NCBI GenBank assembly: GCA_963923945.1 | Contig: OZ000551.1 | Coordinates: 1,557,580-1,621,579 of the forward strand | From: Alphaproteobacteria bacterium | GTDB taxonomy: Bacteria; Pseudomonadota; Alphaproteobacteria; G963923945 | DNA length: 64,000 nucleotides | Direction of reading: 5' to 3' | Shown here: piece after piece, positions 11,976 to 51,541 of the stretch | How positions within the stretch are numbered: the stretch's first letter is position 1 | How the letters are laid out: each line of letters begins with the position of its first letter | Notes under the pieces: model-generated | Seen by the model: the letters and a program-made list of their open reading frames with translations, nothing else | Databases searched by the model: none | Told to the model about the DNA's origin: nothing | Position numbers and translations under genes: made by a program

Positions 11976-12162
11976 GAGTTTTGCTCTCCTCTTGACCCAA
12001 TATGGATGAATCGCAATCGCACCGGGTCCCGATACTGTTGAATTAAAATTAAGTGAATCAAAAAATACTGAGAATTGAGATGGTTTTTCTGTTTGATCGT
12101 TTTAAAATTATCATTTTTAAAATTAACGTCTCACCCGCTTAATATCAGACCGATATCAGATA

Positions 12163-12849: not shown

Positions 12850-12983
12850 GACCCCCCCATACGCAATACGGTAATCATATAAAATAAAACAGCCAACCCC
12901 AACAGCGATAACCCTAAAACAATGTTGCGGAACCGACGGCGTTGTGCGGCCTCTTCCTGCTTATGTCTGTCTTTGGATACCAT
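12846..12983 (-). CDS. small (45 aa) single-TM protein translationally coupled to ctaG (stop TGA overlaps ctaG GTG/ATG)
   Basis: Manual translation of the minus strand gives MVSKDRHKQEEAAQRRRFRNIVLGLSLLGLAVLFYMITVLRMGGS. The reading frame is open in the ctaB-ctaG gap and its stop overlaps the ctaG start (gtcgTGATGaaa). The ORF track omits it because it is under 60 aa. Confidence 0.4.
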   Translation of the reverse strand: MVSKDRHKQEEAAQRRRFRNIVLGLSLLGLAVLFYMITVLRMGGS

Positions 12984-13009
12984 CGGATCAAAACGACCAA
13001 AAAACGTGA

Positions 13010-14100: not shown

Positions 14101-15684
<1,584 letters not shown>

Positions 15685-23008: not shown

Positions 23009-23024
23009 ATCAAACTTTCCGATC

Positions 23025-24005
23025 TTAAATCTCGAACCGGGCCATATTGAACATCACAAAAGCCCCAATCGCCAACCAAACCGAGGCGAAAATAAGCATC
23101 GTATGGCCGCGCGGATCAGTAAATAAAACCGATGCATATTCTGGATTAAGGGTGTGGATGACTCCAAACAGGATAAAAGGCAGGGCGCCGATAATATAGG
23201 CGCTGACTTTTGCTTCACTGGATAATGCCTTGATTTTCAGTTTTAATTGCTTGCGGCGGCGCAAAATTTCTGAGAGATTTTCCAAAGTTTCAGCAAGGTT
23301 TCCCCCGGTTTCTCGCTGGATTGATAAGGTGATGGCAAAGAATTTGAAATCGGGCAGATCCAAACGGCGCGCGGTTTCGGTCATCGCATCATCCAGGCTC
23401 ACCCCGATCTTGATCTGATCAACGATCCAGCCAAATTCTTCGGCCACCGGTCCTTTCATTTCATCGGCAATGGCGGCAAAACCATCGGTGGTCGGCATGC
23501 CGCTTTTTAGGCCTCGTACAATCAGATCAAGAGCACCGGGAAACTGTTCCAAAAATGTGGCCAACCGGTTGCTGATCATGACGCTACAGGCCAGCCAAGG
23601 CAGCGCCAGAGCCAAGATAAAGCCCAACAACACAGCGGTCGGGTAGGGGAGTTGCAGATTCCATGATGCGACAACAAAGCCGCCCAATCCGGCCCCAACA
23701 CACCATAAGGCGTAATCACCCAAGCCAATCTCACGGCCGGTCCGGGCCAAGCGATCACGTAATTGATCCGGGTTGGGGAGCCAGGCCTGAACCAGACGAT
23801 CCAGGATGGGCACTCTGCTGGTGGCTTCGCGGCGGCGTAGATTGCCGTCCAATCCAACCGGATTAATGCTGCCGCCCTTGCCGCTGATCACGCCGAGGCG
23901 TTGATCAAGATGGCGGCGGGTATGGCCGGATTGAAGACCAATCGCCAAAGCCGCCACCATAAGAATAGCGCTGACCACTGCACCGAGAATGATGATAAAA
24001 CTCAT
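23025..24005 (-). CDS. tadB: Flp pilus assembly inner-membrane platform protein TadB
   Basis: GspF-like domain; its start overlaps the cpaF stop (ATGA-type coupling). Confidence 0.8.
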   Translation of the reverse strand: MSFIIILGAVVSAILMVAALAIGLQSGHTRRHLDQRLGVISGKGGSINPVGLDGNLRRREATSRVPILDRLVQAWLPNPDQLRDRLARTGREIGLGDYALWCVGAGLGGFVVASWNLQLPYPTAVLLGFILALALPWLACSVMISNRLATFLEQFPGALDLIVRGLKSGMPTTDGFAAIADEMKGPVAEEFGWIVDQIKIGVSLDDAMTETARRLDLPDFKFFAITLSIQRETGGNLAETLENLSEILRRRKQLKLKIKALSSEAKVSAYIIGALPFILFGVIHTLNPEYASVLFTDPRGHTMLIFASVWLAIGAFVMFNMARFEI

Positions 24006-26095: not shown

Positions 26096-26102
26096 ATCTC
26101 AA

Positions 26103-27377
26103 TCAATCTCCCATCAGCCAGCGACTGGCTTTTTCGAGAATTGTCTCCGGTTTGGTGGTAACATCATGACCTATCATGCGTTGGAGAACAGGAAGAATAT
26201 GGGCATGGGGTGCGACCATCGCCAAAGGTTTGCCGACATTCAAAGCCCGACTAACCGCGCTTGCTTCATGCGGTACAGAAAAATGAATCGGTATTCCCAA
26301 AGCCCGGGAAAATTGATCATGTTCAACTTGTCCGGGGGCACCGGTTGGGGCATTGGTCACAATCTTGATGGTTGCTTTGCACCCTGAGCGTTCAAGGGCC
26401 GCGCGCACACGAATGGTATCGCGTAGGCCGATCATGCTCAGATCACTGACAATAAAAATCTCATCAGCATTGATCGCCGCTTCGGGAAAATCCAACAGGC
26501 GGTAACGCGGCAGATCACAAATGATATGAGTAAACTGGCCCCGCAGTTCACTAATCAAGGTCTCAACCGCATCCTCGACCAGGTCAATATCTTCGCCGAT
26601 CTGTATATCCGCAGACATGATGGATAAGCTGTGGCTGTATTCGGAAAAAGCACCGGATAAAAAATGCGAATCGATCCTTTCCGGGTTTTCCAAAGCCGTC
26701 CTCAACGCTCCACCCGAATCCAGATTCAACTGCAGGCCCACACAGCCATATTCCAAATCAAAATCAATCACCAACACCTGGGCCGGTTTTTCTTGGGCTG
26801 ATTTTTCTTGGGCCGGTTTTTCTCTGGCCTCATCATGGGCGATGGCAAAAGCATAATTGACCGCCAGAGTGCTGGCCCCAACGCCGCCGCGCGCACCGAT
26901 GAATGTCACCAAGGAACTGCTCTGGGGCTTGGTTTTGATGATCCGGCTGTTATCGCCGGAGTCGTCGCCAGAATCCAGCTCCAGGCTTGCGCGTAATTCT
27001 TCTGGATCAAGCGGTTTGGTGAGATAGGCTTTGGCTCCAGCTTCGCGCATACGGGTGGTTGAACCGGCTGAATCATCCTGACCGATGACAATAATTTGGG
27101 TATTGTCTCCATAGGCGGCATCCATATCATTAACCGCCGCCAAAGGGTCGGATTGATCACTCACATCAATCACCGCAAATGGCGGCAGCATCTGTGACCA
27201 TGCCAGAAAATCACCCACCCCACCGTGATGGACACAATTGGTTTCCAGACCGTGTTCCTGGGCCATTTGTTTGATCGTCTCCAGGCAATCGGGATCATGC
27301 GAAAAAGCGATGAAAACATCCGACATAGAATCGGCCTCCAACCGCGACGATGACTGATCAGTGGGGCGCATTAACAT
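26103..27377 (-). CDS. cpaE: pilus assembly protein CpaE/TadZ (N-terminal receiver-like domain plus MinD/ParA-like ATPase with deviant Walker A)
   Basis: Contains a GARGGVGAST P-loop-like segment and a MinD-family fold. It carries an in-frame 15-bp x3 tandem repeat coding KPAQEKSAQEKPAQ (26781-26825). Confidence 0.75.
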   Translation of the reverse strand: MLMRPTDQSSSRLEADSMSDVFIAFSHDPDCLETIKQMAQEHGLETNCVHHGGVGDFLAWSQMLPPFAVIDVSDQSDPLAAVNDMDAAYGDNTQIIVIGQDDSAGSTTRMREAGAKAYLTKPLDPEELRASLELDSGDDSGDNSRIIKTKPQSSSLVTFIGARGGVGASTLAVNYAFAIAHDEAREKPAQEKSAQEKPAQVLVIDFDLEYGCVGLQLNLDSGGALRTALENPERIDSHFLSGAFSEYSHSLSIMSADIQIGEDIDLVEDAVETLISELRGQFTHIICDLPRYRLLDFPEAAINADEIFIVSDLSMIGLRDTIRVRAALERSGCKATIKIVTNAPTGAPGQVEHDQFSRALGIPIHFSVPHEASAVSRALNVGKPLAMVAPHAHILPVLQRMIGHDVTTKPETILEKASRWLMGD

Positions 27378-27402
27378 ATGGATTGCCGCTTTCTTATTGT
27401 TT

Positions 27403-28134
27403 TTATTGTCCTAAGCCTACTTCTTCGACCTGTTGGGTCTCTCCTTGCCGGTAGCTTTCCAGAGATTTGTGGAAACGCACCGCTTGGGCCGGTTCCAAAG
27501 TCCGGCCCTGGATAAGGTCACGCGGATGGGCAACCATCAGGCTGAGATTGCGGGCGGTCGCACAGCCAAAATTGCTGCTTGGGGCGTTGTTGATGCCGCT
27601 GTTCGAAGAACCAGACCAATCGGGGCAAGATGGGGGAATAGCCACATAACGCACCGCCTCCACAACAATGCCGTTGGCCTCATCAGAACGGGCCGCCCGG
27701 GGGGGCAAAAGATCCGATTGAAAGCCGCGGATGGCCGCGTATTCAGCGACCACTGCTTGTTGTTGAGCCAGAAGATCATCATTGATCATGCTGTCATCGC
27801 CACTCTCATCGCCACTCAACGGCGATAACCCATAAATCCTTAAAACCGGGTGCTGACCAGTTTTGATCTGACGCCGCAAGAATGCATCAAGAGTCTCGGC
27901 GGCTTGGGCATCAAGAGAACTGTAGCCATCCAGAAAGGGAATCACCTGAGAGACCAAAGAGACGTCAACTTCTGGTTCTTGCCATTTGAAATGACCGGCC
28001 GCATTGGGAGGCTCACCGGCCGAACAGGCACTGATCACAAGGGCCATCATGGCGATGCCGAACCCCTTGAGGAGGGTGTCCGGGCTTTGATAGGGAAAGT
28101 TTCTCATTGAGCGGGTTATTCCTTTCATGGTCAT
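27403..28134 (-). CDS. cpaD: pilus assembly lipoprotein CpaD
   Basis: Has a signal peptide with a lipobox (LVISAC). The size and position between cpaC and cpaE match CpaD. Confidence 0.6.
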   Translation of the reverse strand: MTMKGITRSMRNFPYQSPDTLLKGFGIAMMALVISACSAGEPPNAAGHFKWQEPEVDVSLVSQVIPFLDGYSSLDAQAAETLDAFLRRQIKTGQHPVLRIYGLSPLSGDESGDDSMINDDLLAQQQAVVAEYAAIRGFQSDLLPPRAARSDEANGIVVEAVRYVAIPPSCPDWSGSSNSGINNAPSSNFGCATARNLSLMVAHPRDLIQGRTLEPAQAVRFHKSLESYRQGETQQVEEVGLGQ

Positions 28135-28147
28135 GAATCCAACCTTT

Positions 28148-29551
28148 TTATTCGATGATGAATCCGGCCGCCCCGGTCAATGCGCCGCCATCGGGACCAA
28201 TCGGGCGGCTGCGGCCATCGGCGATGCGGCTGCGATAGAGGTGACCGCCGAATATGCGCTCAGAGTCACTGGCCGGTCGGAATCCATCACCGGGTGTGGC
28301 CAGGGTGGCAACACTGACCGGGCGAACGATATAAGGGGTGACAATAATCACCAGCTCGGTTTCCTGATCGCGCAGTTGGTTAGAACGGAACAAGGTCCCC
28401 AAAATCGGGATATTGGCCAATCCGGGCAATTTATTCAGACTCTGGTTGAGATCGCGCTGCAACAAACCACCGATGGCAAAACTCTGGCCGGATGCCAGCT
28501 CAACCGTGGTTTCAGCCCGGCGGGTGGTGATGGACGGGATATTGAGACCGCCGATGGTGGTCGAGCTCTCGGCGACATTGCTGACTTCCGGACGCACCCG
28601 CAGACTGATCCGGTTTTCGGATAACACCACCGGGGTGAAAGAGAGGCTCACCCCAAAATTTTTAAACTCCACTCCCGGGGTTCCGGTGGCGCTGGGGGTC
28701 GGGATAGGAATTTCACCCCCAACCAGAAAACTGGCGGTCTCCCCGGAAAGGGCGGTCAAGTTGGGCTCAGCCAGCACAGTAACCAAGCCTTCGGTTTCCA
28801 ATGCTTCCAAGACCCCCTTGCCCGAGATGGCACCGGTTGCATAATCACCGGCCAACACATTGGCCCCACGGGTGACCACATCCTCACCAAAGGCCCCACC
28901 AAAACCCCAAATCAGTGAGCTGGCTCCACTCTCAAACACTTGCTCCCATTGCAGGCCGAATCGTTTGGTCGCTGAGCGGGAAACCTCAGCCACCTTGACC
29001 CGCAAATGGACTTGCTGGCTGCTGCTAAGATCAAGCTGATTGACCACCGAACCGCCCTCACCGGCATAACTCTTGGCGATGGTCTCAATATCCAAGGCTG
29101 CGGTGGCATCCGGGACCACCCCTTCCAGAGTCAAGCCTCCCTCATAAGAAGATACCGTGGGCGGTAAGGGCAGATTGGCTTGCTCCAATGCCCGATCAAG
29201 GCCGTCGATATCACGGCCGACCACCACTTTGCGGGCCAAGATGATCCGTTGTTCACCACCCATGACGAATAGGCTGGTTTGGCCGTTCTTTTTTCCATAA
29301 ACATAAAGCAGACGCGGCGATTTTAATTGAATATCGGCAATTTCCGGCTGGGCAATGAACACACTGGTGGCTGAGGAATCCAGACGAAGAACCTGCCCCT
29401 GATCCACCTGTATAGTGATGGGGGTTGGTTCGGCCAGGATCACTTCATTGGCGTTGGGGCTGCGGTTTGGTGTGCTGGCCAAAGCAATCACCGCGATGCC
29501 AACAAGCCCAAAATGTAAGATCAATCGGGAAATGGTCTTTCTCATTGCCAT
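28148..29551 (-). CDS. cpaC: Flp pilus secretin CpaC/RcpA
   Basis: The 467-aa product has a signal peptide, N-terminal BON/secretin-N domains and a C-terminal secretin domain (…GGLLQRDL…PILGTLFRS…). Confidence 0.85.
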   Translation of the reverse strand: MAMRKTISRLILHFGLVGIAVIALASTPNRSPNANEVILAEPTPITIQVDQGQVLRLDSSATSVFIAQPEIADIQLKSPRLLYVYGKKNGQTSLFVMGGEQRIILARKVVVGRDIDGLDRALEQANLPLPPTVSSYEGGLTLEGVVPDATAALDIETIAKSYAGEGGSVVNQLDLSSSQQVHLRVKVAEVSRSATKRFGLQWEQVFESGASSLIWGFGGAFGEDVVTRGANVLAGDYATGAISGKGVLEALETEGLVTVLAEPNLTALSGETASFLVGGEIPIPTPSATGTPGVEFKNFGVSLSFTPVVLSENRISLRVRPEVSNVAESSTTIGGLNIPSITTRRAETTVELASGQSFAIGGLLQRDLNQSLNKLPGLANIPILGTLFRSNQLRDQETELVIIVTPYIVRPVSVATLATPGDGFRPASDSERIFGGHLYRSRIADGRSRPIGPDGGALTGAAGFIIE

Positions 29552-29609
29552 TCCTTTACTGTTTTTTCGTGTGTTTTTTTCATGTGTTTTTTATGTTTTC
29601 CGGTAGGGA

Positions 29610-30488
29610 TCAGAAACTTTCAATATTGGTCGCCGGGCCGCGGATCACTTCGACATTCCAGCTCTGCATCACCGGCTGTACGTTATTTCTGTTCCCCAGA
29701 GGGGTTCCCGCTTGCAAGGCGTCACTGATCTCGTAATCCCAAATCGGTTTACGATTTTCATCCAGGATCACCTCTAAATCTGGATCATCCTGCTCCATAT
29801 CCATCGCTTCGGCGATCCCGAACAGGCTGCGTAAAGACAGAGATAGTTGTCCCAAAGAACCGGCAACCGATATAATTTTGGCTTCTTTGGGTGTTACTTG
29901 TAGGGTGACCGTACTGGCGATAATCGGATCACGATCATCGGTATCCGAGCGTTGATCCACCGCCAGGATACGGATATCCTCAAGCAACAGTTCGGTGACT
30001 TGGCGGTCTTCAATCGAATGGGTGAGCAGGATATCCACCCGGTCACCAGGGAAAACAAAACCAGAAATACCGGTTGTCGCGCTGACCGGAATGGAAACCG
30101 CTTGCGATCCAGGCTTGAGAACAGCGGCCATGAAACCCCGTTCCCCCGGCAACACCACCATATTATGGGAAACCGGTTGCCCGGCATCCGCATTCACCCG
30201 GATGACCGCGCCAACAAATTCATCAATACTGGCATCGCTCTTGGTGAGGAAACTGCCGGGAATATCAAAAGCCGGCCAATCTTGCCATTTGAGATCATTG
30301 CTTTTAATGAAAGAGCCAACCGGTAAATTACGCCGGGCCACCAAGACCGAACGAGTCTCTATAGGCGACGGGACGCTGATCGCTTCAATGGCGCGGCGTT
30401 CATTATCCAGCCAGTTGCGAGCCAGCAGAGCGGTCACCAGACCAGCGGTAATCGCGGCCGCACCAAGGATGAGCAAACGCTTATTCAT
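29610..30488 (-). CDS. cpaB: Flp pilus assembly protein CpaB (SAF domain)
   Basis: The start is chosen at MNKRLLILGAAAI (30488), overlapping the cpaA stop in the palindromic tcatga. The track ORF extends to 30542. Confidence 0.8.
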   Translation of the reverse strand: MNKRLLILGAAAITAGLVTALLARNWLDNERRAIEAISVPSPIETRSVLVARRNLPVGSFIKSNDLKWQDWPAFDIPGSFLTKSDASIDEFVGAVIRVNADAGQPVSHNMVVLPGERGFMAAVLKPGSQAVSIPVSATTGISGFVFPGDRVDILLTHSIEDRQVTELLLEDIRILAVDQRSDTDDRDPIIASTVTLQVTPKEAKIISVAGSLGQLSLSLRSLFGIAEAMDMEQDDPDLEVILDENRKPIWDYEISDALQAGTPLGNRNNVQPVMQSWNVEVIRGPATNIESF

Positions 30489-31078
30489 GAGATCCCTTCC
30501 ATAATGATGATGTTGCGTAAAAACAGTTCGGTTGCCACCCAACCGCCCCCGGCCGCAATGGCGATTCCGTAGGGCAAATCGTCATAGGCTGCCTTTTTGT
30601 TGGAGCTGGTTTTTTGGTCGGGCCATGCCGCCGGTAAAAGCCGCATGGTCGGCGGCTTGGGATCACTTTTGGTCCAAGGAAGAGAAGCCATTAAGAGATA
30701 TAAAACAGCCAATAGGCCGCCGCTTAGGGAGACCACCAAGCCAAAAATCAAAGAGAGTTCAAAACCACACCACAAACCACAAGCGGTCATCAGCTTGACA
30801 TCGCCGCCGCCCATGGCACCCCGGGCAAACAAAAAAGCCCCCAGGCAAAAAGCCAGCGCCGCTACGCTAAAACTGCCCAGCCAATCGACCGGTTGCGGGG
30901 TGACCCAAGCATAGAGAAAAAAACACACCGCAATACCCGCACAGACCAGGTTGGGGATGCGCCGCTCAAACAAATCCTCCAAAGCCGCCCGCACCAGCAA
31001 ACCAGCAAAAGCCATGAGAGCCAGCATGGCCAAAATGGTCGCAACATTGATATGAGAGCTTATGGACATAGCGGTCAA
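30485..31078 (-). CDS. cpaA: prepilin peptidase CpaA/TadV (A24 family)
   Basis: Polytopic; contains the conserved catalytic Asp region (GAMGGGDVKLMTACGLW). Confidence 0.8.
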   Translation of the reverse strand: MTAMSISSHINVATILAMLALMAFAGLLVRAALEDLFERRIPNLVCAGIAVCFFLYAWVTPQPVDWLGSFSVAALAFCLGAFLFARGAMGGGDVKLMTACGLWCGFELSLIFGLVVSLSGGLLAVLYLLMASLPWTKSDPKPPTMRLLPAAWPDQKTSSNKKAAYDDLPYGIAIAAGGGWVATELFLRNIIIMEGIS

Positions 31079-41001: not shown

Positions 41002-41589
41002 TCAAGCCCCCATCAGCCGACCAATCGCCATGAAGCCGCCAATCAAAATAATCAAAAAGAGGACTGTCACCCAACCCAGCCGTTTTTCCAAAAAGACCTG
41101 CACCGGGGGGCCGAATTTCCATACCAGCCCGGCCACAAGAAAAAATCGCGCACCCCGCGATGCCAGAGCCGCCAGGCAGAAAACCGCTAAATTGAGATCA
41201 ACCACGCCGCTGGCGATGGTTACAACCTTGAACGGGATCGGTGTGAAGCCGCCAACCGCCACAATCCAGGCTCCGTATTGGGTGTAGAGGTCCTGAAAAT
41301 TTTGAAATTCACTGCTGTAATGATAAAAATCGAGCAAAGGACGGGCCACCGTTTCAAAGAACAGAAAACCGATCCCATACCCCAATAATCCCCCGGCGAC
41401 CGAGGTGAGCGTACACAGGGCGGCATAACGCCATGCCCGGTCCCGGCGGGCCAGGACCATCGGGATCAATAAGACATCAGGGGGTATGGGAAAAACCGTG
41501 CTTTCGGCAAAGCTCACCCCCGCCAATGCCGTCCCGGCCCGGCGGTGACCGGCCAGACGCAAAGTCCAATTATAGAGTTTTGCCATCAT
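41002..41589 (-). CDS. YqaA/DedA family membrane protein
   Basis: The 195-aa product has conserved DedA-type re-entrant motifs (VFPIPPDVLLIPMV…GFTPIPFKV). Confidence 0.7.
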   Translation of the reverse strand: MMAKLYNWTLRLAGHRRAGTALAGVSFAESTVFPIPPDVLLIPMVLARRDRAWRYAALCTLTSVAGGLLGYGIGFLFFETVARPLLDFYHYSSEFQNFQDLYTQYGAWIVAVGGFTPIPFKVVTIASGVVDLNLAVFCLAALASRGARFFLVAGLVWKFGPPVQVFLEKRLGWVTVLFLIILIGGFMAIGRLMGA

Positions 41590-41818
41590 AAGAACGGCAT
41601 AACAGCCTTTGCCCGAGGCGTCCAGAATTCAACCTTTCTTTTGCCAATAAAACAGCCCAATAAAACAACCAGGAATGCCCAAGCTTGATTGCTTCAAACG
41701 CATGGTCCTTAAAAGCCACGATGATGCAACCGAATCTGGACAACAGGTGGTGGGCTGTTTACTCTGCTTATGTATTGAGATACCCATAAATGAATTGCAT
41801 GGGTTGAAAATCTCTCGT

Positions 41819-41905
41819 GCGGATGTGGCGGAATTGGTAGACGCGCCAGACTCAAAATCTGGTGGGGGCAACTCCGTGAGAGTTCGAGTCTCTCCATCCG
41901 CACCA
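41819..41905 (+). tRNA. tRNA-Leu (anticodon CAA)
   Basis: Folded by hand: acceptor GCGGATG/CATCCGC, D-arm GCGG…ACGC, anticodon stem CCAGA/TCTGG with loop CTCAAAA, a long class II variable arm, T-arm GAGAG-TTCGAGT-CTCTC, and an encoded CCA. Confidence 0.9.
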
Positions 41906-42062
41906 TTGCCCAATTTCCGGCGTTGGTGCAGTGTTGGGTATTGCTCTTGGCCTCGCGATGGCTGTTTTGTGCATCTGTTTCGCCCAATGGGATGATTGAT
42001 TGTGCCGATGCCATTTCCGCTATTTTGCGATGGCGCGTTGCCTCGTAATTGATTTTTCCGGA

Positions 42063-42806
42063 TCATCCATCAATATCAGGCGGCGGGATGTATTGAGGTG
42101 GGTCGTGATCGCCGCGCAGCCGGGCCTCGAAGATCATTTTCAGGGTTTTCCAACTGAACTTTAACAAGAACCCAAAACGTATGGTGCCGGAGCTGGCGTC
42201 CGATTGCGGCGTCAATGTGACCGGCACTTCTGTATAAGTCTCCAATATTGAAAAGAGTCGAATCAGGCTGACCTCGTGATAGCGATAGTCCTTTGGGAAC
42301 GAAATTGACCGGGCCGCGCTGACCGGCCAAACAAAAAGACTATGTCCATCGCGAATGGGACACCGGGTGGCAAGCCGTATAAGCCGGGTGCAGATGATCG
42401 ATAGCAGTCGGCGCAGAGGTTCCCGCTCTTGCATATTGTGTCGATAGGAAATCACCATATCCGCTGCTCCAGCCGCTTTGAAAACCGCAGCGACACCGGA
42501 TGCCTCGAAGGCTTTGTCTCCAGGAATGAGGGTTATGAATGGGTGAGTGGCTCTGGCGAGTGCTGCAGCGTAAGCCGCACCGACGCCTTGATTGGTAGGG
42601 TGATGGATGACGTCAACTTCATCGTACTGGGTTGCCAACAATTCACTGACCGTGTCCGTGCCATCGCTGCTGCCGTCATTCACAATGATCAATTCGAACG
42701 CCTCTAAATGATCCCGGGCGGCAGAAAGAGCTTCTTCAACCGTGCTTCGCAAGCGGTCCGCCTCGTTATAGGCTGGCACGACAATGGTTACGGATGCTCT
42801 ATTCAC
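42063..42806 (-). CDS. family 2 glycosyltransferase (DPM1/GtrB-like soluble catalytic domain)
   Basis: Has the N-terminal motif VVPAYNEADRL, a DXD-like box (IVNDGSSDGT) and GVGAAY; 247 aa. Confidence 0.8.
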   Translation of the reverse strand: MNRASVTIVVPAYNEADRLRSTVEEALSAARDHLEAFELIIVNDGSSDGTDTVSELLATQYDEVDVIHHPTNQGVGAAYAAALARATHPFITLIPGDKAFEASGVAAVFKAAGAADMVISYRHNMQEREPLRRLLSIICTRLIRLATRCPIRDGHSLFVWPVSAARSISFPKDYRYHEVSLIRLFSILETYTEVPVTLTPQSDASSGTIRFGFLLKFSWKTLKMIFEARLRGDHDPPQYIPPPDIDG

Positions 42807-43371
42807 AAGAGACCTGCGTCACGGTTTGTTATCTTTTGACTTGATCTTGCGCAGATATGGCAACACAATACCGGAAATAACGGACATGAGTTTGCGCCTG
42901 CGGGGAACCCGAACCGATGCTGAGCCCATCTCGGCCATCGTGTCCCGCGCGAAGGGAAATCCGTGGTGTGCCAGGTGCTGATGGCCTTTTTCATCCTGTA
43001 GATATGTATGTGCGCCCAGAAAGTTGGCCCGCCCGGCACCAATGGGTTGCTGCGAGTAGGCCTTGGTCTGAATATCCGTCAACGATGGCGGCAGAGAATC
43101 CCGATGGAAGCTCAAATAAAACAATTGTAGAATCCAACATGGCGGTGTATCACTTTCTCTTCAAGAATGGACGGCAATTCGATACTGCCATGATATGCCG
43201 CTCCTTGGGAACCATGGCCAGCCTTCCTGCACCTGCGCTCCAACAAAATCAATATCACACCTGAACCAACGCCAAATCGGTTATCCATCATGCTGATGCG
43301 GCGATAAACTGCGATTGGCTTGCAATAATTTTTAATGCAGAAATGCGAAGACACAGAATAACCCCCCCAAA

Positions 43372-44949
43372 ATGCATCAAAAATTCAATAAATACACCAG
43401 TATATATGTTCTTTTAGTGACGTTTTTACTGTTGTTTTGTGCTTTTGCCACAGCGAAATATTTGGGTCTCAACAAAGCTGATCCGACAAATCGCCTCATG
43501 CATCATGCGATGCCGGTGGCGATGTCGGTACTTTATCAAGGTTGGCCATTCGATTATACCGCAAACAGAGCCTTGGCAATGAAATTTCGCATGTATGAAG
43601 GAGCGCACGAACCGAAAGTTGGATTTACAAGTATTGACCAACTCATCGAAAAATTGAAGGATACTTCATTCGATAAAAGCCAAACATATTTTTGGGTTGT
43701 CGACGATAAAGGATTAGGACTTTACGCCATTATCGCGGGGGCAATATTTGGCCTGAGTCTGAACGGACTTTTTTTATTTTACTTTTTTATCATAGGAGCA
43801 AGTTCGCTCCTTTTCATATATGGAAATAAAAACAGTAAAGAAAACGTCATCATTCTTTATTCTTATCTCGCAGCTTTATGTTTTTTGATTCCAATTTTTA
43901 TTTTTTTGAGTGTCTCGAATCCCGGTCAAGCAATTCATATCAGCGAAGCCCGATTGTTTGGAATGCTCTCAATCCTGCCTATTGTGCATTTGTTTCTTTT
44001 CGGGATTCAAAAAAGAGAAATCCATTCACATGAGATGATCGCGGTCATCGGTCAAGTCATTATCTTTATATTTTTACTGCATATTCGGTCCTCTATGACT
44101 GGTCAAATGGGCATTTTGGTGCTTGCGGTCTTATTATTTGGATGCCGTAGCATAAGAATGAGAAACTGGAACATCAGAGCCATTATTTCCGCAGTGAGTC
44201 TGGTTTTCGCGGTCACTGTGGCCTTGCCGTTATTTGAAAGAATTTTCTTCCACGATCATTATTTCGGAAATTCCGGCCAAAGAACCATATGGCATAATGC
44301 TGTTATGGGACTCGCTTATAATACTCATTTCAAGAAAAATTACTGTTTGGGAGTCGATGATTGGAAATCAGCGCTTGCTGTTTTGAAATATAAATATGGA
44401 ATTGAATTCACCAAAAAAACCGCATGTGATTCCAATCCAAAACTTGATGAGGAAGTCAATACGGCGATGAAATCTATTGGAAATGTAGCAGAGTATAACT
44501 GGGAAGAACATGAAAGAACGGCCAGAAATTTAGTTTTTTCATTACTGCAAAAATACCCGAGAGAAGGTATAGAATTATTTTTTTATAATAAACCAATGAG
44601 TATTTTTTATGAAATAAAAGGTTATTTTCGCAATCTTCAAAATATACTGATGAAAGATCTCGGATTATTATTACTTCTTTCTTCTGGTTTTTTGGTGATG
44701 ATTTTTGGAAGTTTTTTGTTGAGTTTTGTTTTTTTATCTGAAAATTTTAAAGTGAATGTTTTTCCAATAGTTTTTTTCATGGGGATTTTGACAATAGGGG
44801 GAGGTATTCCTCCGTTTTTGTTCTATCCAGCCCTTTCGTCGGTGGCCGGCATTATTCTTTCATTGGCTTTGCTGGTGTTTTTTTGTTTGTCCTTTCTTTC
44901 GGCCATGTTTGGATACAAAATGGCATCTGCGAAAAAAGCCGCCGGATAA
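43372..44949 (+). CDS. low-GC polytopic membrane protein, possible O-antigen ligase/Wzy-type polymerase
   Basis: The 525-aa product has more than 10 predicted TM helices and a large loop containing GNSGQRTIWHNAV, which resembles the Wzy_C SxRxxxW signature. Its codon usage is conspicuously more A/T-rich than the neighbours. Confidence 0.45.
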   Translation: MHQKFNKYTSIYVLLVTFLLLFCAFATAKYLGLNKADPTNRLMHHAMPVAMSVLYQGWPFDYTANRALAMKFRMYEGAHEPKVGFTSIDQLIEKLKDTSFDKSQTYFWVVDDKGLGLYAIIAGAIFGLSLNGLFLFYFFIIGASSLLFIYGNKNSKENVIILYSYLAALCFLIPIFIFLSVSNPGQAIHISEARLFGMLSILPIVHLFLFGIQKREIHSHEMIAVIGQVIIFIFLLHIRSSMTGQMGILVLAVLLFGCRSIRMRNWNIRAIISAVSLVFAVTVALPLFERIFFHDHYFGNSGQRTIWHNAVMGLAYNTHFKKNYCLGVDDWKSALAVLKYKYGIEFTKKTACDSNPKLDEEVNTAMKSIGNVAEYNWEEHERTARNLVFSLLQKYPREGIELFFYNKPMSIFYEIKGYFRNLQNILMKDLGLLLLLSSGFLVMIFGSFLLSFVFLSENFKVNVFPIVFFMGILTIGGGIPPFLFYPALSSVAGIILSLALLVFFCLSFLSAMFGYKMASAKKAAG

Positions 44950-45289
44950 CTCGACATTCTTGCTGTCTGTCCGGGGAAAAAGGGAAAGTGAGCGGCACAT
45001 TCTTGCCGATGCCTGTGGTTTGCTGATGCGTTTTTTAATGCATACCGCTGACTGGCAGAATCATGGTGGTGGTGTCATGGTGGTGGGGGTATTATTCCGT
45101 CAGTTTCTTTTCCTGTTGAAGCGGTATACCAAGAGCGGCTATCAAGGTGACCGGTTTGAGAGTGGGGTGAAAAAATCTCATCGCCGAGTCAATGCTGGGA
45201 CCATTAAATTCTCGGACCAAGTTGAAAAATTCTCTGCGCCGCCGGAACGCTGGATTGTCGAGCGCGCCTTTGCCTGGTTTGGCGACTAA
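44909..45289 (+). pseudogene. C-terminal remnant of a DDE transposase (IS5/IS4 superfamily, DDE_Tnp_1-like)
   Basis: The ORF ends …PPERWIVERAFAWFGD*, matching the conserved C-terminal ERWxVERTFAWL motif of IS5-family transposases. I see no N-terminal catalytic region or inverted repeats. Confidence 0.5.
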
Positions 45290-45348
45290 TGTTGGAAAGC
45301 CAGAATCGCGCATTCATAAAAGCATCCTGCTCATAGAAGCGCCATATA

Positions 45349-46395
45349 ATGGGTTATAATGCGTTTACAATGAGTTCGAATGTTCAATTTGTTGTGAAGA
45401 TTGTGATTGTCATCGCGGTGTTCGGTGTCATTTTGATGTCGGTCGACCGCGACATGCTTTTCAATACAATCAGCAAAGTGACGCCCGCAACCTATCTCAT
45501 CTTGATTGGCATGGTGTTTGTTCAAGCGGGATTTTTAGGCTACCGTTGGCATCTTATAACCCGGCAGGTTGGGGGTGTTTTGCCTATTGGGTCCAGTTAC
45601 TCCGGCACCCTTGTCAGTTTCTTCTTTTCACAAGGTTTGCCGTCATCCGTAGGTGGAGACGTTCAGCGAATATGGTGGCTTAAGGCGCGCCATGACATTC
45701 CGGTTGGCCAAGCAGCCCGCAGCGTCCTGCTTGATCGGGTCGCTGGGCTGGTTTCGCTTCTCATTCTTTGTGCTGTCAGTGTCGTGCTGTTGGAAAGACG
45801 GGTCGATAGTGAGATTTTTGACCGGCTCGGTACCCTTCTTATGATCACCATCGCAGGCGGATTGGGCATACTGGCACTGGCGGTGGTGCCGTTTCGCTAT
45901 GGAGTCTCTCAATGGCTGCGCACCCTTTCGGATCGAATGCCCAAACGATTCAGCCAATTCTTGCTCTGGCTGGTGGCGTTTCGCGAGAACTTTGTGGGGT
46001 TGCGCCCGGGGCCGGCCACCGCGATTATGCTTATTGGTGTGACGATTCATTTGGTGAGCGTGGCGTTGGGTTATGTGGTTACCCGAGACTTGGTGCTGGG
46101 TCTGACATTTCTTGATTGTGTGGCTTTGATCGCGCCGGCATTGTTGCTGAGCTATTTGCCGATTTCGATCGCTGGCTGGGGGGTGCGAGAAGCGTCCTTG
46201 ATCGGTGCGTTCAGCTTGATGGGTGTGTCGCTGGAAGCCGGATTGACGGTTTCTCTGATCCTCGGATTCAGCTTCCTGATCACATCGCTTTTCGGGGGAT
46301 TGCTGTGGCTGTTTAGCGGGGCTCGGGGCACTTGGGTCCGTGGTGGTGGAACGGCACTGACCAAACCGGAAACGCCGCCGCTGTCAAGGCAGTAG
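45349..46395 (+). CDS. flippase-like / lysylphosphatidylglycerol-synthase-TM-domain (UPF0104) membrane protein
   Basis: The 348-aa product has about 8 TM helices and a conserved Arg-rich loop (QRIWWLKARHDIPVGQAARSVLLDRVAGL). Confidence 0.55.
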   Translation: MGYNAFTMSSNVQFVVKIVIVIAVFGVILMSVDRDMLFNTISKVTPATYLILIGMVFVQAGFLGYRWHLITRQVGGVLPIGSSYSGTLVSFFFSQGLPSSVGGDVQRIWWLKARHDIPVGQAARSVLLDRVAGLVSLLILCAVSVVLLERRVDSEIFDRLGTLLMITIAGGLGILALAVVPFRYGVSQWLRTLSDRMPKRFSQFLLWLVAFRENFVGLRPGPATAIMLIGVTIHLVSVALGYVVTRDLVLGLTFLDCVALIAPALLLSYLPISIAGWGVREASLIGAFSLMGVSLEAGLTVSLILGFSFLITSLFGGLLWLFSGARGTWVRGGGTALTKPETPPLSRQ

Positions 46396-46402
46396 CATTG
46401 CA

Positions 46403-46915
46403 ATGGAATTCGTCCCTGCTTTTTCGGTCTGGACCGCTCTGAGCGGGCTGGTGTTTCTTCCTGTTTTGTTGGCACTTCTCGCGCGACCCCCTTTCAAACT
46501 TCGGCCGCCGGGGCGGCGGTTCCAATTATCGGCCCTGATCATCTTCATCAGTTGGGCGGCGGCCCAATTCACCCAAGATGCCCCTGAAAGCCAAGACCTC
46601 TTGATTGGCGGTATTCTCCTCACCGGTGGCCTGCTCTGCGCCTCTACTCTTTGGACTCTTTTGGCATGGGGCTTTACGGTCTTCTTGCTGCTGGCCCTGG
46701 CCGGGAACCGTGATGCCCCGTCATTGGATGATTGGATTGCCCGCTACACGGCGGGGCGAGGCGTGACCATGTTCACCCGGGATAGGGCCGGGGTTCTGCT
46801 GCGATTCGGTTTGGCCCGGGTGGTCGATGGTCGATTTCGGATCACCGACTGGCCGGGACGCAAAGTTTTGGCAGCGGCGCGCCTGGTCGCCAGAATCTTC
46901 GGAATTGCCCTATGA
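46403..46915 (+). CDS. membrane protein with C-terminal winged-helix-like domain (paralog A)
   Basis: The 170-aa product has 3-4 TM helices and a C-terminus RDRAGVLLRFGLARVVDGRFRITDWPGRKVLAAARLVARIFG. It is coupled to the upstream gene by an 8-nt gap and to the downstream gene by an ATGA overlap. Confidence 0.4.
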   Translation: MEFVPAFSVWTALSGLVFLPVLLALLARPPFKLRPPGRRFQLSALIIFISWAAAQFTQDAPESQDLLIGGILLTGGLLCASTLWTLLAWGFTVFLLLALAGNRDAPSLDDWIARYTAGRGVTMFTRDRAGVLLRFGLARVVDGRFRITDWPGRKVLAAARLVARIFGIAL

Positions 46916-47457
46916 CCGGTGAAGCCGCATCCTTCGGGCTGGGTTTCATGAGCCTGTTTGTCCATGTTGCTGTGACGTTGGGGTTGCTGTGGACCCTTCG
47001 TGATCGGTCACCGGTCATACTTCAATTATTCTCCGCATTGATTGCCGAGACCCTGTTTGTTGCTGTTGGTTTGATTATTGATCCGGTGATCGATTTTTGG
47101 ATTGGCAGCGTTATGATTGGATTTGGCGCGGTGCTCCTGCTGTTTGTTCATTCAGCCTTGTACAAGTCGGTATCATTGCGCATGTTGGCCGCGCTGGCCA
47201 GATCCCCTGACCCTGAGACCGATATTCATAGGATCAGCGAAGAGGTTACCCGGCCGTTATTTGCTGACCGGGTGGGGGTTTTGATAGAGATGGGATATGT
47301 CTGCGTAGAGCGGCGATGCGGCATGGAATGCTATGCGGTTACCGAGGCCGGCCAGCACTTCGTCGCCCGGTTGGCCGGGGTTCAACGGCTATTTGGCGTT
47401 GATGCCAACGGCTTTTATGACTCAGGACCAAACAACCGCCGACAACGTGATCTCTAA
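46912..47457 (+). CDS. membrane protein with C-terminal winged-helix-like domain (paralog B)
   Basis: The 181-aa product has 3 TM helices and a C-terminus ADRVGVLIEMGYVCVERRCGMECYAVTEAGQHFVARLAGVQRLFG. That region aligns position-by-position with paralog A (xDRxGVLxxxGxxxVxxR…YxxTxxGxxxxARLxxxxRxFG). Confidence 0.4.
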   Translation: MTGEAASFGLGFMSLFVHVAVTLGLLWTLRDRSPVILQLFSALIAETLFVAVGLIIDPVIDFWIGSVMIGFGAVLLLFVHSALYKSVSLRMLAALARSPDPETDIHRISEEVTRPLFADRVGVLIEMGYVCVERRCGMECYAVTEAGQHFVARLAGVQRLFGVDANGFYDSGPNNRRQRDL

Positions 47458-47546: not shown

Positions 47547-49091
47547 TCATTTCTCAATCACCGCTTTGTGATAGCCGCCGATTTTGGCCAGGTTATTGAG
47601 GGATTGGGAAACAGTATCTTCGGGTAAAGGAAACGCGGTATCGGTGATTTTCAGCTTCACAACCTCTTTTTCAACCATCAGATGGCTCTGCTTGAAAAAA
47701 GTCTTGATCCCTCCGGAAGCTTGATACGCCAGATGAAGAGCCGCCCCGCATAAAGCGGCTTGGTGCACTCCATCGCCGCCCAGCAAGGATGTGATACCCG
47801 AGGCGACGTGATCGGACATTTGGCCACCATAGCGAATAAAAACAGCCAGAGCGATATAGGCCCGTCCGGGATGATCAATTCCATAAAGCGGCATCCATAA
47901 TATATGTTGCAAGGCTTGGACAGCCCGATAATCGGAATATTCTTGCCAAGCAATGTCGGAAAAACAGCACGCGGCCAGCCGCAGACGTTGCTTTTCTGGA
48001 TCGACATTGCTGCCGAATAAGGGGGCAATCCATTGTTCCAAGACCGGCCCCAATCGACCAAAACGGCCAAAGCGTTCCTCATATTCCAGAGCCATGCTTT
48101 CCAGAGGATCTTGGGCCAAAATGGCCGCCGGGAGATTATTCAAGAGACAGCCTTCGCGTAATCCGGTCGATGGAAAAACCACGCCCGCCGGTTTCATGCG
48201 TTGCAAAATAATAGTCAAAATGCTGGCTGCATAAGGTAAGATTTCAACCCGACGGCTGGGAATCCCTTTGATTCCAGACAAGGATTGCCGACTTTGGCGG
48301 CTGATCAATCGGACCAAATTATCAATATCCCGGGTCGCGGCTTGATATCCTTGGAGCAACCGCAATGGATAATTCCTATGGGCCATATGCAGACGTGCAA
48401 ACACCCGCCACGCCCCGCCAATCGCATAGAAATTCTGGCCCTGATGATCTTGGAGAAAATCAGCCTTTTTCAATTCTTTTCTGATCAGACGATGAATCTT
48501 GGCTTGATGCGCATCCCCGCGGTCAGCCAGTCGCAACGGTCCGATGGGTAAGGAAACAACCGCCCCGACTTTGTGATTCTCCAAGACCGCCAATTCCAAA
48601 CTGCCGCCACCCAAATCACCGGCAATCCCAGAGGCCTGAGGGCAAGAGGCCAGAACCCCGGTGGCGGCCAGCCGACCTTCCTCGGCCCCGGTCAAAACCC
48701 GCACCCGGTGCGAGAAAATCTGCTCGACCCGGTCGACGAATACAGCACCATCCTTTGCTTCACGTACCGCAGCAGTGGCCAGAATATCCAATCTCTCAAC
48801 CGCCATCGCCTGGATGATCATCACAAAGCGTTGCAGGGTCTCCAAGGCCGCAACCACACCGTGTGGATTGAGCAATCGGGTGGTTTGCAGACCGCGTCCC
48901 AAGCCGCAAATAGAGCGTTCGTTGAACAAAACACCCGGAACCCGACCCAAGCCATCATAAATGACCAAGCGGACCGAGTTGGAGCCGATATCAATAATCC
49001 CGACCCGCTTTTGTGCTTGTTTCTGTGATCTCTTCTCAAAAAGAGGGAAAACAGGCCGAAACTGCTGAGAAAGGGAAAAAATTGATGGCAT
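47547..49091 (-). CDS. ppx: exopolyphosphatase / guanosine pentaphosphate phosphohydrolase (Ppx/GppA family)
   Basis: The 514-aa product has the ASKHA-fold N-terminus (VGIIDIGSNSVRLVIY) followed by an HD-like C-terminal domain. Confidence 0.85.
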   Translation of the reverse strand: MPSIFSLSQQFRPVFPLFEKRSQKQAQKRVGIIDIGSNSVRLVIYDGLGRVPGVLFNERSICGLGRGLQTTRLLNPHGVVAALETLQRFVMIIQAMAVERLDILATAAVREAKDGAVFVDRVEQIFSHRVRVLTGAEEGRLAATGVLASCPQASGIAGDLGGGSLELAVLENHKVGAVVSLPIGPLRLADRGDAHQAKIHRLIRKELKKADFLQDHQGQNFYAIGGAWRVFARLHMAHRNYPLRLLQGYQAATRDIDNLVRLISRQSRQSLSGIKGIPSRRVEILPYAASILTIILQRMKPAGVVFPSTGLREGCLLNNLPAAILAQDPLESMALEYEERFGRFGRLGPVLEQWIAPLFGSNVDPEKQRLRLAACCFSDIAWQEYSDYRAVQALQHILWMPLYGIDHPGRAYIALAVFIRYGGQMSDHVASGITSLLGGDGVHQAALCGAALHLAYQASGGIKTFFKQSHLMVEKEVVKLKITDTAFPLPEDTVSQSLNNLAKIGGYHKAVIEK

Positions 49092-49360
49092 GGAAAACGA
49101 CGCGTATGCAAAAGCGGGAAGTCTTCTCTTTTCGTTGAGAATTTTCCTCGGTGTGGTGAGAATTTTTTTAATTCAGTGAGAATTTTTCTTGATCAAGTAC
49201 AGTCTTCAATCAGGATGATTCATCTTCAAGGGTGGCTCATTTCTTGGTCAGTGATTGAGAATCAGTCTGATATCGTGACCTTGTATGGTGATTTTAGTCT
49301 ATTGCAGAACTGAAGAACGGCGAGGCGGGGTTGAAAACCCAAAATGCGATTCGACTTTTT

Positions 49361-51541
49361 CTACCCGGTCCTTAAGGAGAGGTGGGCGACCGTATGATCA
49401 TTTTTTAAGGCACTGCCACGTCCCGATAAGCTCGGATTGGTCATGAAATATTGATGGGCGGAAAAACCGGCTTTACCGGCGTCAAAACGCCGATAGCTGC
49501 CATCGGCCTGCAAGGCCCAACTCTGTTCATGATCATTCAGGTTGGCGATCATGACTTGATTCATGACTTGTTGTTTCACGGTGGCGTTTTCGATCGGCAC
49601 CATGACCTCGACTCGTCGATCAAGATTGCGTTTCATCCAATCGGCGGATGATATATAAACCGCCGCTTCCGGGTCTGGCAGACCTTTGCCGTCACCAAAG
49701 CAAAAGACCCGGCTGTGTTCCAAAAAGCGTCCAATGATGCTTTTGACCCGAATTGTTTCTGAAAGCCCAGAAATTCCCGGCCTCAAGCAACAGATACCAC
49801 GGACAATCAGATCAATCTCGACCCCGGCTTGGGATGCCTTATACAGGGCCTCAATGATTTCCCGATCGACCAGGGCATTCATTTTGGCCCAAATCGCTGC
49901 CGGACGACCGGCTTGGGCATGGTCGATTTCAGCATGAATATGGTTGAGCAGGCTTTCGCGCAAGGTAAATGGGGCAACCGCGATTTTTTCCATCTTCTCA
50001 GGCTTGGCATAGCCGGTCATGAAGTTGAACATTTTACCCGCATCCCGACAAAATGCCGGATCAGCGGTAAAAAAGGACAGATCAGTATAAATTTTGGCGG
50101 TCAGCGGATGATAATTACCGGTGCCAAAATGGATATAAGAACGCAGATTGTCCCCCTCACGGCGCACCACCAAGGACACCTTGGCATGGGTCTTTAATTC
50201 GATGAAGCCGTAAACCACCTGGACCCCGGCCCGTTCCAAATCCCGGGCCCAGCGGATATTGCGTTCCTCATCAAAACGGGCCTTCAACTCGACCAGAGCG
50301 GTGACCGACTTTCCGGACTCAGCGGCCTCAATCAGAGCCGCAACAATGGGAGAATTTTCACCCGTGCGGTAAAGGGTTTGCTTGATCGCCACCACCGCCG
50401 GATCACGCGCGGCCTGACGGATGAATTGAACAACAACATCAAAACTTTCATAAGGATGGTGAACAATAATATCTTTTGTCCGAATGGCGGCCAGGCAGTC
50501 ACCACCAAAATCGCGGATACGTTCGGGAAAACGGGCACTATAGGGGGTGAATAAAAGATCATGACGCTCATCAGTGATCAGATTTAGGATATCGGATAAA
50601 CCAACAACACCGCTGGTGTGGTAAGCCGATTCGGCATCAACCGCCAATTCTTCAACCAGGAAATTTTGCAAAGATTCCGGCATGCCTTCATTAACGCCCA
50701 AGCCAATGACAACACCGCGTCGACGCCGCTTCAAGGCACTCTCAAAAGAGCTGGCCAAGTCTTCGGCTTCTTCCTCTATCTCCAAGTCACTGTCTCGAAT
50801 GACCCGAAAAACCCCGTAAGACACCACCCCCATACCCGGAAACAAGCTGTCGAGAAAGAGGCTGATGGCATCTTCCAGCAAAATAAAGCGGCTTTCCTCT
50901 CCAGGCAGGCGGATAAAACGGTCCAGATAATTGGGCAACGGAATAATACCATTGAAGGGGTCGGTCTCTTTGGGGCGCAGCAGCTGAACCGCCAGGCTCA
51001 GACCAAGATTGGGGATAAAAGGAAAAGGATGGGCCGGATCGATGGCAATCGGGGTGAGAACTGGGAAAATGTCGGCCATGTAACGGGCGTGTAACCACTG
51101 CCGATCATCCACGTCCAGTTCTTTGGGTCCGAGAACCGCAATGCCTTGTCCCCGCATTTCTTGTTTGAGTTCTTCCCAACAGGCATCTTGCCGGGCCAGT
51201 AAATCATCAATCCCGGTATCGATTTCTTTTAATTGCTGGGCTGGAGTCCGGCCATCAAGGCTGGTCTGGGTGATTCCCTCGCGGACCATCTCCTTAAGAC
51301 CGGCCACTCTGACCATGCGAAATTCATCAAGATTGCTGCCCGAGATGGATAGGAATCGAATCCGTTCCAGCAATGGATGGGCGCGATTGGCCGCTTCCTC
51401 CATCACCCGAAGATTGAACGCCAACCACGATAATTCACGATTGATGTAACGTTCCTCGGGCCGTGACAAATCCATTCCCGACGGCGATTCAGCCGGTGAT
51501 GATTCTTCAGCTGGGGTTAGAATTTTGGCAACACGGCTCAT
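49361..51541 (-). CDS. ppk: polyphosphate kinase 1
   Basis: The 726-aa product has the PPK1 N-domain ([21 protein letters not shown]) and two PLD-like HKD regions. Confidence 0.95.

Follow-up and report, generated by a model that had tools for sequence, protein, structure and literature searches.

We analyzed a 64,000-nucleotide stretch of DNA from an alphaproteobacterium (contig OZ000551.1 of assembly GCA_963923945.1, positions 1,557,580 to 1,621,579 of the forward strand; hereafter the window, whose first letter is position 1), with a focus on two small membrane protein genes, here named A and B, and on the genes around them. Positions 42063–47457 of the window appear to make up one five-gene envelope-glycosylation module of the lipid-carrier three-component type, of the same kind as the Arn, Gtr and Gac systems. 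In the reading that we tentatively favor, with somewhat less than even confidence, A and B form a heterodimeric, non-catalytic membrane adaptor that tethers a family-2 glycosyltransferase (GT2) without transmembrane (TM) helices to its membrane partners, and are not gene regulators. From the gene anatomy, the paralogy of A and B, the folds and the gene neighborhoods described below, we infer the A/B heterodimer, the docking of GT2 and the substrates. An accessory module for the modification of cell-envelope glycans was among the possibilities raised by an earlier note on this DNA, and it fits the evidence. The five genes are:

42063–42806, minus strand: GT2, a 247-amino acid (aa) family-2 glycosyltransferase, ArnC/GtrB/DPMS-like (polyprenyl-phosphate sugar synthase-like), putative catalytic subunit
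43372–44949, plus strand: M525, a 525-aa polytopic membrane protein with a predicted GT-C fold, putative periplasmic transferase that uses the lipid-linked sugar
45349–46395, plus strand: F, a 348-aa UPF0104 / LPG_synthase_TM membrane protein (MprF flippase-domain-like, "PplT"), putative flippase for a lipid-linked sugar
46403–46915, plus strand: A, 170 aa, with three TM helices (N-terminus outside) and a cytoplasmic winged-helix-like domain
46912–47457, plus strand: B, 181 aa, a paralog of A, with three TM helices and a cytoplasmic winged-helix-like domain

The last three genes are as tightly packed as the earlier note had described, with the coordinates exact and the TGA of A and the ATG of B sharing an ATGA overlap, although the stop of F and the start of A are separated by 7 nt (cattgca) rather than by 8.

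In the proposed mechanism, the cytoplasmic, TM-less and ArnC-like GT2 would transfer the sugar of a nucleotide-sugar donor to a polyprenyl phosphate in the inner leaflet, the lipid-linked sugar would be moved to the outer leaflet, at the window locus probably by F, and M525, ArnT-like by its predicted fold, would transfer the sugar to a periplasmic acceptor. A and B would assemble as a 3+3 TM heterodimer with their winged-helix domains lying flush on the cytoplasmic face of the membrane, where they would dock GT2, which appears to have lost the C-terminal TM helices possessed by ArnC, GtrB and DPMS. The pair would probably complete or stimulate the lipid-phosphate acceptor site of GT2 through the motif YKSVSLR in B and the motifs W..AWGFT and PGRRF in A, and would also link GT2 physically with the polytopic partner whose gene directly precedes theirs, either F or the GT-C enzyme.

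Gene neighborhood of A and B

Family profiles were used to map 31 loci: 16 from metagenomes, 9 from genomes, the window itself, and those obtained through four encoding-contig look-ups. A lies directly upstream of B in all 30 loci in which this could be assessed, typically with a 4-nt overlap. The most constant neighbor of the pair is a GT2 subfamily of about 250 aa, whose members match the window gene with E-values of 1e-60 to 1e-74. It occurs at most 3.6 kb from A-B, usually in divergent orientation, in 12 of the 15 loci flanked by 3 kb or more of sequence on each side, and also on shorter contigs that reach far enough (L001, L013, L017, L018, L028, and those encoding P0003 and P0115). That this most constant neighbor is a subfamily which lost its TM anchor favors an adaptor role for A and B.

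Large polytopic membrane proteins accompany this core. Homologs of M525 adjoin GT2 in L005, sit between GT2 and A in L010, L013, L015, L017 and L018, where the divergent GT2 / (GT-C)-A-B arrangement is found again, and immediately precede A in L020, L023 and L027, on contigs too short to reach any GT2. The M525 homolog and A share a 4-nt overlap in L010 and L018. In Gemmataceae loci, two 10-TM proteins of about 700 aa stand downstream of GT2 in the place of M525; these have no detectable kinship to M525 by hhalign (probability 2.5%) and no match in Pfam. F is present in only four loci (the window, L001, L005 and L022), and F-A-B are contiguous in L001 and L005, with F overlapping A by 4 nt. 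The constant core of the module is therefore GT2 plus A plus B, with a large polytopic membrane protein nearly always along, while F is optional. The earlier note had taken F, A and B as the functional unit; given that GT2 and M525 are the conserved partners of A and B and that F is optional, this trio is not the unit.

A natural fusion of B and M525 was found in protein P0115 (B at residues 6–171, M525 at residues 193–700), on a contig with the order GT2-A-B::M525. The fusion is topologically consistent, because the C-terminus of B and the N-terminus of M525 are both predicted to be cytoplasmic. Together with the translational coupling of A to the polytopic gene upstream of it, which is F in L001 and L005 and M525 in L010 and L018, this suggests that the proteins belong to one membrane complex. 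Further, A/B and GT2 persist while the polytopic partner varies among M525, the unrelated ~700-aa family and, in four loci, F, and therefore A and B are likely to serve the GT2 step. The GC content of the loci ranges from 37% to 74%, and so the module is phylogenetically scattered.

The large polytopic partners are themselves often paired, which echoes the pairing of A and B. For example, L015 carries two M525 copies in one 1024-aa open reading frame (ORF; 6403–9477), L005 has two divergent M525 paralogs (10081–11628 and 11743–13341), and the two ~700-aa Gemmataceae paralogs (L003, 2303–6561) are 52–55% identical to each other. The window, unlike these loci, has a single large polytopic partner, M525.

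Family, fold and topology of A and B

When A and B are compared directly, BLASTP gives 28% identity over 109 aa with an E-value of 0.015, and the "residue-for-residue" correspondence previously claimed for them was overstated. The paralogy itself holds: aligned with hhalign, the A alignment (9 sequences) and the B alignment (92 sequences) match over 71 columns of the C-terminal domain with a probability of 95.4% and an E-value of 1.8e-8, and the two families have in common the pattern F-x-x-R-(L/V)-x-(V/L)-L ... G ... R-x-(L/F)-G. A and B are thus remote paralogs, a relationship that is solid at the family level though thin pairwise.

A word-indexed search with A returned five metagenomic homologs, and the same kind of search with B alone returned nothing but B itself. 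The B family was reached via the genes 3' of the A homologs on their contigs, from which a three-sequence profile led to 99 proteins. A search of 1.84 billion cluster representatives with the B-family profile then gave 846 matches at E ≤ 1e-3, 307 at E ≤ 1e-10 and 121 at E ≤ 1e-30, and the family therefore has at least 846 representatives of clusters formed at 50% identity, nearly all of them 155–200 aa long. Named sources are mainly Gemmataceae and other Planctomycetota metagenome-assembled genomes, and the names given are without exception "hypothetical."

No Pfam or NCBIfam model matched A or B, the sole match being that of B to EarA, a winged-helix family, at an E-value of 0.28. At a lax threshold of E ≤ 5 in Pfam, the 9 A members had no match at all and the 92 B members matched 41 families, among which sub-threshold matches to two winged-helix families, HVO_A0261_N (22 of 92) and HTH_45 (19 of 92), recurred. 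No helix-turn-helix (HTH) family matched any of the 92 B members significantly; the best single-member E-value was 0.002. Among the 25 listed of the 41 matched families, GtrA, ArnE/ArnF (SMR/EamA), DUF2304 (GacJ), DPM2 and DPM3 were absent, as were MarR and PadR. Searching PDB sequences with a profile of B gave only chance TM matches (GABA-A receptors), plus Sso10a at an E-value of 1. The A/B family is a widespread and undescribed accessory component without a Pfam or NCBIfam model; the kind of system it belongs to is already known, and the A/B pair is what is new.

An AlphaFold2 model of B, built on the 92-sequence alignment, has a predicted local distance difference test score (pLDDT) of 90.8. 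Its three TM helices (residues 3–28, 34–56 and 62–84) are followed, after a break of two residues, by a C-terminal domain consisting of a helix at 87–97, a helix at 105–126, a beta-hairpin at 130–135 and 138–143, and a helix at 145–160. A and its homologs have the same 3-TM layout by hydropathy, so that the N-terminal TM helices reported for both proteins are borne out at three each. The top 50 Foldseek matches of the B model in the PDB are almost exclusively winged-helix proteins, including SSV1 F-93, ArsR/BigR/SmtB/CzrA, AspA, Sso10a-2, MarR proteins, TubR and the winged-helix domain of RIOK2, with probabilities of up to 1.0 but E-values of 0.14–1; the alignments were placed on the C-terminal domain by inference from their lengths. 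Though these structural matches are weak, we accept the modeled C-terminal domain of B as a winged-helix-like fold at the superfamily level, i.e., a helix-turn-helix with a beta-hairpin wing. Of the MarR/PadR-like winged helix proposed in the earlier note, the fold accordingly stands, whereas membership in MarR or PadR does not, as the window proteins had no such match even at E ≤ 1.

The charges of the loops between the TM helices (loop 1, +2.0 in B and +3.6 in A; loop 2, negative) indicate by the positive-inside rule that the N-termini are outside and that the C-terminal domains are cytoplasmic. Both winged-helix domains would thus lie on the side of the membrane where GT2 is, which favors an adaptor. 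The same holds for the distribution of conserved residues. Conservation is highest at the cytoplasmic end of TM3 and in the first helix of the C-terminal domain (0.84–0.88; 0.88 for residues 84–100 of A), where the head group of a lipid phosphate and a peripheral GT2 would meet. In B, the cytoplasmic end of TM3 bears an invariant YKSVSL followed by a near-invariant R90, and the tail has a conserved G..G.Y; A has a conserved PGRRF in its cytoplasmic loop and a near-invariant W-x-L-x-AWGFT where TM3 exits the membrane. Conservation is lower in the recognition helix (0.66–0.70) and the wing (0.50–0.55), and TM1 and TM2 are also among the less conserved parts. In the B family, the wing is acidic (mean charge −1.75), which again favors an adaptor, and the recognition helix H3 is near neutral (mean +0.6); the A domain is net basic (mean +4.9), mainly in its last helix. 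The periplasmic loops of A and B have only 5–9 residues, leaving no periplasmic domain.

Partner proteins and genomic setting

GT2 matches PF00535 with an E-value of 2e-21. Its profile aligns over the full length only with ArnC, the undecaprenyl-phosphate 4-deoxy-4-formamido-L-arabinose (Ara4FN) transferase, acceptor-side motifs included (positions 4–220 against 9–228, E = 2.5e-10), whereas the alignments with other, non-ArnC GT2 structures, DPMS (5mlz) and GtrB (5ekp) also being matched, cover the N-terminal ~110 residues (the Rossmann half) only. In NCBIfam, GT2 has weak matches to ArnC and PpgS. No TM helix was found in GT2, which ends at residue 247 and has a maximum 19-residue Kyte-Doolittle value of 1.29, or in 10 of its orthologs. 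Judged by its sequence, GT2 is probably an ArnC/GtrB/DPMS-type synthase-like enzyme without a membrane anchor.

M525 had no sequence match in Pfam, NCBIfam or the PDB. Its AlphaFold model, of moderate confidence (pLDDT 71.9, predicted template modeling score 0.75, from an 8-sequence alignment), has a GT-C fold, with a polytopic core and a long first extracytoplasmic loop, and ArnT is its best match. This loop, between TM1 and TM2, contains a conserved W108..D111-D112-G114, in which D112 is invariant in the 8 sequences. GT-C enzymes typically use polyprenyl-phosphate-linked sugar donors, and M525 is, on this model, a putative periplasmic GT-C transferase.

F matches PF03706 (LPG_synthase_TM) over profile positions 2–302 of 302 with an E-value of 1.6e-35 (123.4 bits, cut-off 33.4), and just exceeds the cut-off of the flippase-like model TIGR00374 (44.7 against 43.2 bits), in agreement with its previous description as an LPG-synthase-TM flippase-like protein. 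Hydropathy predicts seven hydrophobic segments, and no match to PDB sequences was found, even by profile search. F is thus classed as a UPF0104/MprF-type flippase-like protein whose role as a flippase is putative, since flippase activity of stand-alone UPF0104 proteins, GpgF included, is unproven (PMC12713373).

The F-containing loci L022 (2998–15574) and L005 (1–16507) have in common a split transketolase (N and C halves) and several methyltransferases, and L022 additionally has an epimerase, an HAD phosphatase and an APH-type kinase. These genes suggest the synthesis of an unusual sugar donor; none of them is in the window. In L022, a mobile gene of the RRXRR family (8701–9840; PF14239, E = 2e-52) stands between F and A, and an IS605 OrfB/TnpB-like gene (14372–15574) sits a short way downstream of the module. 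Mobile elements are thus found repeatedly in or beside the module, as seen in these L022 genes and in an IS5 fragment in the window.

The remaining features of the window locus are:

41819–41905, plus strand: tRNA-Leu(CAA), found by ARAGORN and Rfam (RF00005, 62.7 bits), bordering the module on the GT2 side
42807–43371, no strand: intergenic region from which GT2 and the GT-C gene diverge, with presumed shared promoters
44909–45289, plus strand: IS5-family transposase fragment that separates the GT-C gene from F and has no working role in the module

The insertion sequence (IS) remnant that had been noted upstream of F is confirmed as a partial IS5 transposase (NF033580, E = 3.7e-9, profile positions 122–228 of 258; weak match to PF13586). 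M525, the gene upstream of it, had been called a foreign-looking glycan-polymerase gene, and its GC content is indeed low, at 0.32–0.41 compared with 0.53–0.60 for the other genes of the module, but it is not foreign to A and B, being their conserved partner. All module proteins in the window are singleton clusters at 90% identity, which, together with the GC content of M525 far below that of its neighbors, suggests that the module is a mosaic and was acquired horizontally. The transferase gene looks as if it had been swapped in from a low-GC donor, with the IS5 fragment abutting it, and yet it shares its protein family with the partners at other loci. The module is flanked by ppx and by tRNA-Leu(CAA). 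The tRNA gene is 157 nt away from where the GT2 gene ends; it is a possible insertion site, and this setting suggests a tRNA-associated island. However, when direct repeats, tRNA-derived or other, were sought at the borders of the module, only short chance repeats came up, none of them tRNA-derived at the far end.

Just past the tRNA, a DedA/VTT-domain membrane protein is encoded at 41002–41589 on the minus strand (PF09335, E = 6e-9). It has a weak match, far under the cut-off, to NF052605, the model of the undecaprenyl-phosphate transporter UptA (E = 2.6e-4). A candidate flippase for carrier-lipid recycling adjoining a carrier-lipid glycosylation module may be more than coincidence. On the other side, tail-to-tail with B, positions 47547–51541 on the minus strand hold an exopolyphosphatase (Ppx-GppA and Ppx_C, E = 5e-42 by profile search) and a 726-aa ORF that looks like a polyphosphate kinase, the profile search having covered ppx only. 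ORFs of 100–145 aa over tRNA-Leu on both strands (41629–42066, minus; 41675–42014) are almost certainly spurious. Farther away, a run of same-strand genes at 22004–31078 (minus), including 697-aa and 424-aa proteins and small membrane proteins, resembles a Tad/Flp pilus cluster, as judged from N-terminal sequences alone.

Relation to known systems and alternative readings

Contrary to the earlier statement that the genes match no textbook operon, the module fits the three-component lipid-carrier scheme of the Arn, Gtr, Gac and archaeal AglD systems, in which only the A/B pair is new. The closest parallels for a helper of GT2 are GacI/GacJ/GacK/GacL of Streptococcus pyogenes and PpgS/Rv3632 of Mycobacterium tuberculosis, which likewise combine a polyprenyl-phosphate-sugar GT2 with an adjacent small 3-TM partner that stimulates it. 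GacJ (3 TM, 113 aa) stimulates the GT2 enzyme GacI and associates with it in a detergent-stable complex, and Rv3632 stimulates PpgS (bioRxiv 10.1101/180810). In the Gac system as in the proposed module, a flippase and a GT-C enzyme complete the transfer, although the flippase-like protein is of the UPF0104 type in the window and Wzx in Gac. However, GacJ and Rv3632 are single DUF2304 proteins of about 110 aa without a soluble domain, whereas A and B are a paralogous pair of 170–180 aa with winged-helix-like domains and without a DUF2304 match.

The eukaryotic dolichol-phosphate-mannose synthase, DPM1/DPM2/DPM3, is similar in that an anchor-less catalytic GT2, DPM1, depends on two small membrane subunits, DPM2 and DPM3 (PMC7728079), one of which holds it by a cytoplasmic C-terminal segment. 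By contrast, DPM2 and DPM3 have about 85–92 aa and two TM helices each, no winged helix and no sequence relationship to A and B, and an interaction of GT2 with A/B is here only proposed. With regard to the Arn system, ArnC has two C-terminal TM helices and the window GT2 has none, ArnE and ArnF are 4-TM SMR-like proteins without a soluble domain, unlike A and B, and no other arn genes are present. GtrA-like accessory subunits, a known family that the earlier note had named as an identity that would refute its reading, were considered and rejected given the lack of a profile match and the different architecture.

Archaeal AglD/UPF0104 (arCOG00899), PplT, GpgF and HexF belong to the same Pfam family as F (PF03706) and are predicted to flip lipid-linked sugars or lipids, but these systems have been described without an A/B-like pair. 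AglD is a GT2 fused to UPF0104, and archaeal neighborhoods combine UPF0104, a GT-C enzyme and a GT2 (PMC5898192); UPF0104 proteins have been tied to glycolipid export in GpgSDF and HexSDF (PMC12713373), and a preprint on PplT also connects them with such a role. Finally, winged-helix DNA-binding proteins such as ArsR/SmtB, MarR, the PadR-like AspA, Sso10a and SSV1 F-93 have the fold of the C-terminal ~80 residues in common with A and B (helices, beta-hairpin wing and trailing helix), whereas A and B differ from them in having no significant sequence match, a direct fusion to three TM helices, an acidic wing in B and conservation outside the recognition helix.

Several observations weigh against an adaptor that serves GT2. 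A and B have no detectable sequence similarity to DUF2304/GacJ, DPM2/3, GtrA or ArnE/F, and A-B occurs without a GT2 of the family nearby in three loci with long flanks (L012, L014 and L029). The B::M525 fusion would suit a GT-C subunit equally well, and most loci have no recognizable flippase, which leaves room for A and B themselves to act as one. Moreover, the GT-C assignment of M525 comes from a model of only moderate confidence on 8 sequences.

A different role, which we consider unlikely, is that the A/B heterodimer is itself the flippase for the lipid-linked sugar, like ArnE/ArnF or GtrA, with the winged-helix domains only receiving the product of GT2. In the Arn layout, ArnE and ArnF are a tandem pair of small paralogs, and the tandem, overlapping and paralogous small membrane-protein genes next to an ArnC-like GT2 and an ArnT-like GT-C protein mirror arnC/arnT/arnE/arnF. 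Further, in about 27 of the 31 loci the module lacks any gene for UPF0104, GtrA or Wzx, and therefore something must flip the intermediate, although those genomes may encode a flippase elsewhere; a few conserved polar residues are also found in the TM helices of B (a consensus His in TM1 and in TM2). However, in four loci A and B stand behind the flippase-like F, tightly coupled in L001 and L005, and a flippase formed by A and B would be redundant there. TM1 and TM2 are less conserved while the cytoplasmic interface is the most conserved part, and A and B have three TM helices instead of the 4-TM SMR/GtrA architecture, without a Pfam match to EamA, SMR or GtrA. More doubtful still is a bolder version, in which A and B are a new and widespread bipartite machine (3+3 TM with two membrane-apposed winged-helix domains) that itself translocates polyprenyl-phosphate sugars delivered by the docked GT2. 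If true, this would be a fifth architecture for flipping lipid-linked sugars, beside Wzx/MurJ (MOP), ABC, GtrA/SMR-like and UPF0104 proteins, and one in which winged-helix domains serve enzyme docking instead of DNA binding.

We give equally little credence to the idea that A and B are accessory subunits of the GT-C transferase, acting on its stability or choice of acceptor, and not of GT2. The natural fusion P0115, the translational coupling of M525, A and B in L010 and L018, and the frequent pairing of the large partners, like that of A and B (L005, the tandem M525 in L015, Gemmataceae), all speak for it. However, A and B remain unchanged where F or a member of an unrelated family takes the place of the large partner, the conserved and globular parts of both proteins lie in the cytoplasm while GT-C catalysis is periplasmic, and it is the GT2 subfamily, not the GT-C protein, that is their most constant neighbor.

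Somewhat less probable again is a reading that concerns the acceptor lipid and not A and B, namely that the module makes a membrane glycolipid, with GT2 glycosylating a glycerolipid and F flipping the product as in GpgSDF and HexSDF. UPF0104 flippase-like genes do partner glycolipid synthases in P. aeruginosa GpgSDF (PMC12713373) and in C. difficile HexSDF (PMC10128005). By contrast, F is missing from most A/B loci, a large polytopic protein is present in most of those with enough flank (a GT-C fold having been seen only for M525), GT2 aligns with ArnC over its full length, GpgS is a GT4 enzyme, and the window module has no deacetylase.

It is highly improbable that A and B are membrane-tethered winged-helix regulators or sensors controlling the module, as the earlier note had suggested: although the fold, whose nearest structural matches are mostly DNA-binding proteins, the basic A domain and the nearby, presumed divergent promoter region would suit such a role, there is no periplasmic sensor domain and no significant HTH family match, the wing of B is acidic and its recognition helix near neutral, both elements are less conserved than the motif at the membrane interface, the domain begins two residues after TM3 and is thus held against the membrane, and winged-helix folds also make protein-protein and RNA contacts, as in RIOK2.

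In three-component glycosylation systems, a GT2 acts in the cytoplasm and a GT-C enzyme in the periplasm, with a flippase between them. Such systems decorate lipopolysaccharides, teichoic acids, cell-wall polysaccharides and surface proteins, and affect susceptibility to antibiotics and phages. How anchor-less GT2 enzymes gain access to their lipid acceptor, and how intermediates are handed over from synthase to flippase to transferase, is only partly understood. To our knowledge, few helpers of anchor-less GT2 synthases have been described, namely GacJ, Rv3632 and DPM2/3. A and B have a clear genomic association with a GT2 synthase, and they use a fold that is normally read as "transcription factor." The family is particularly frequent in Planctomycetota, a group about whose envelope glycans little is known. 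Its recognition would improve annotation, in which a regulator role is disfavored, and would offer a tractable model of how lipid-carrier glycosylation complexes assemble.

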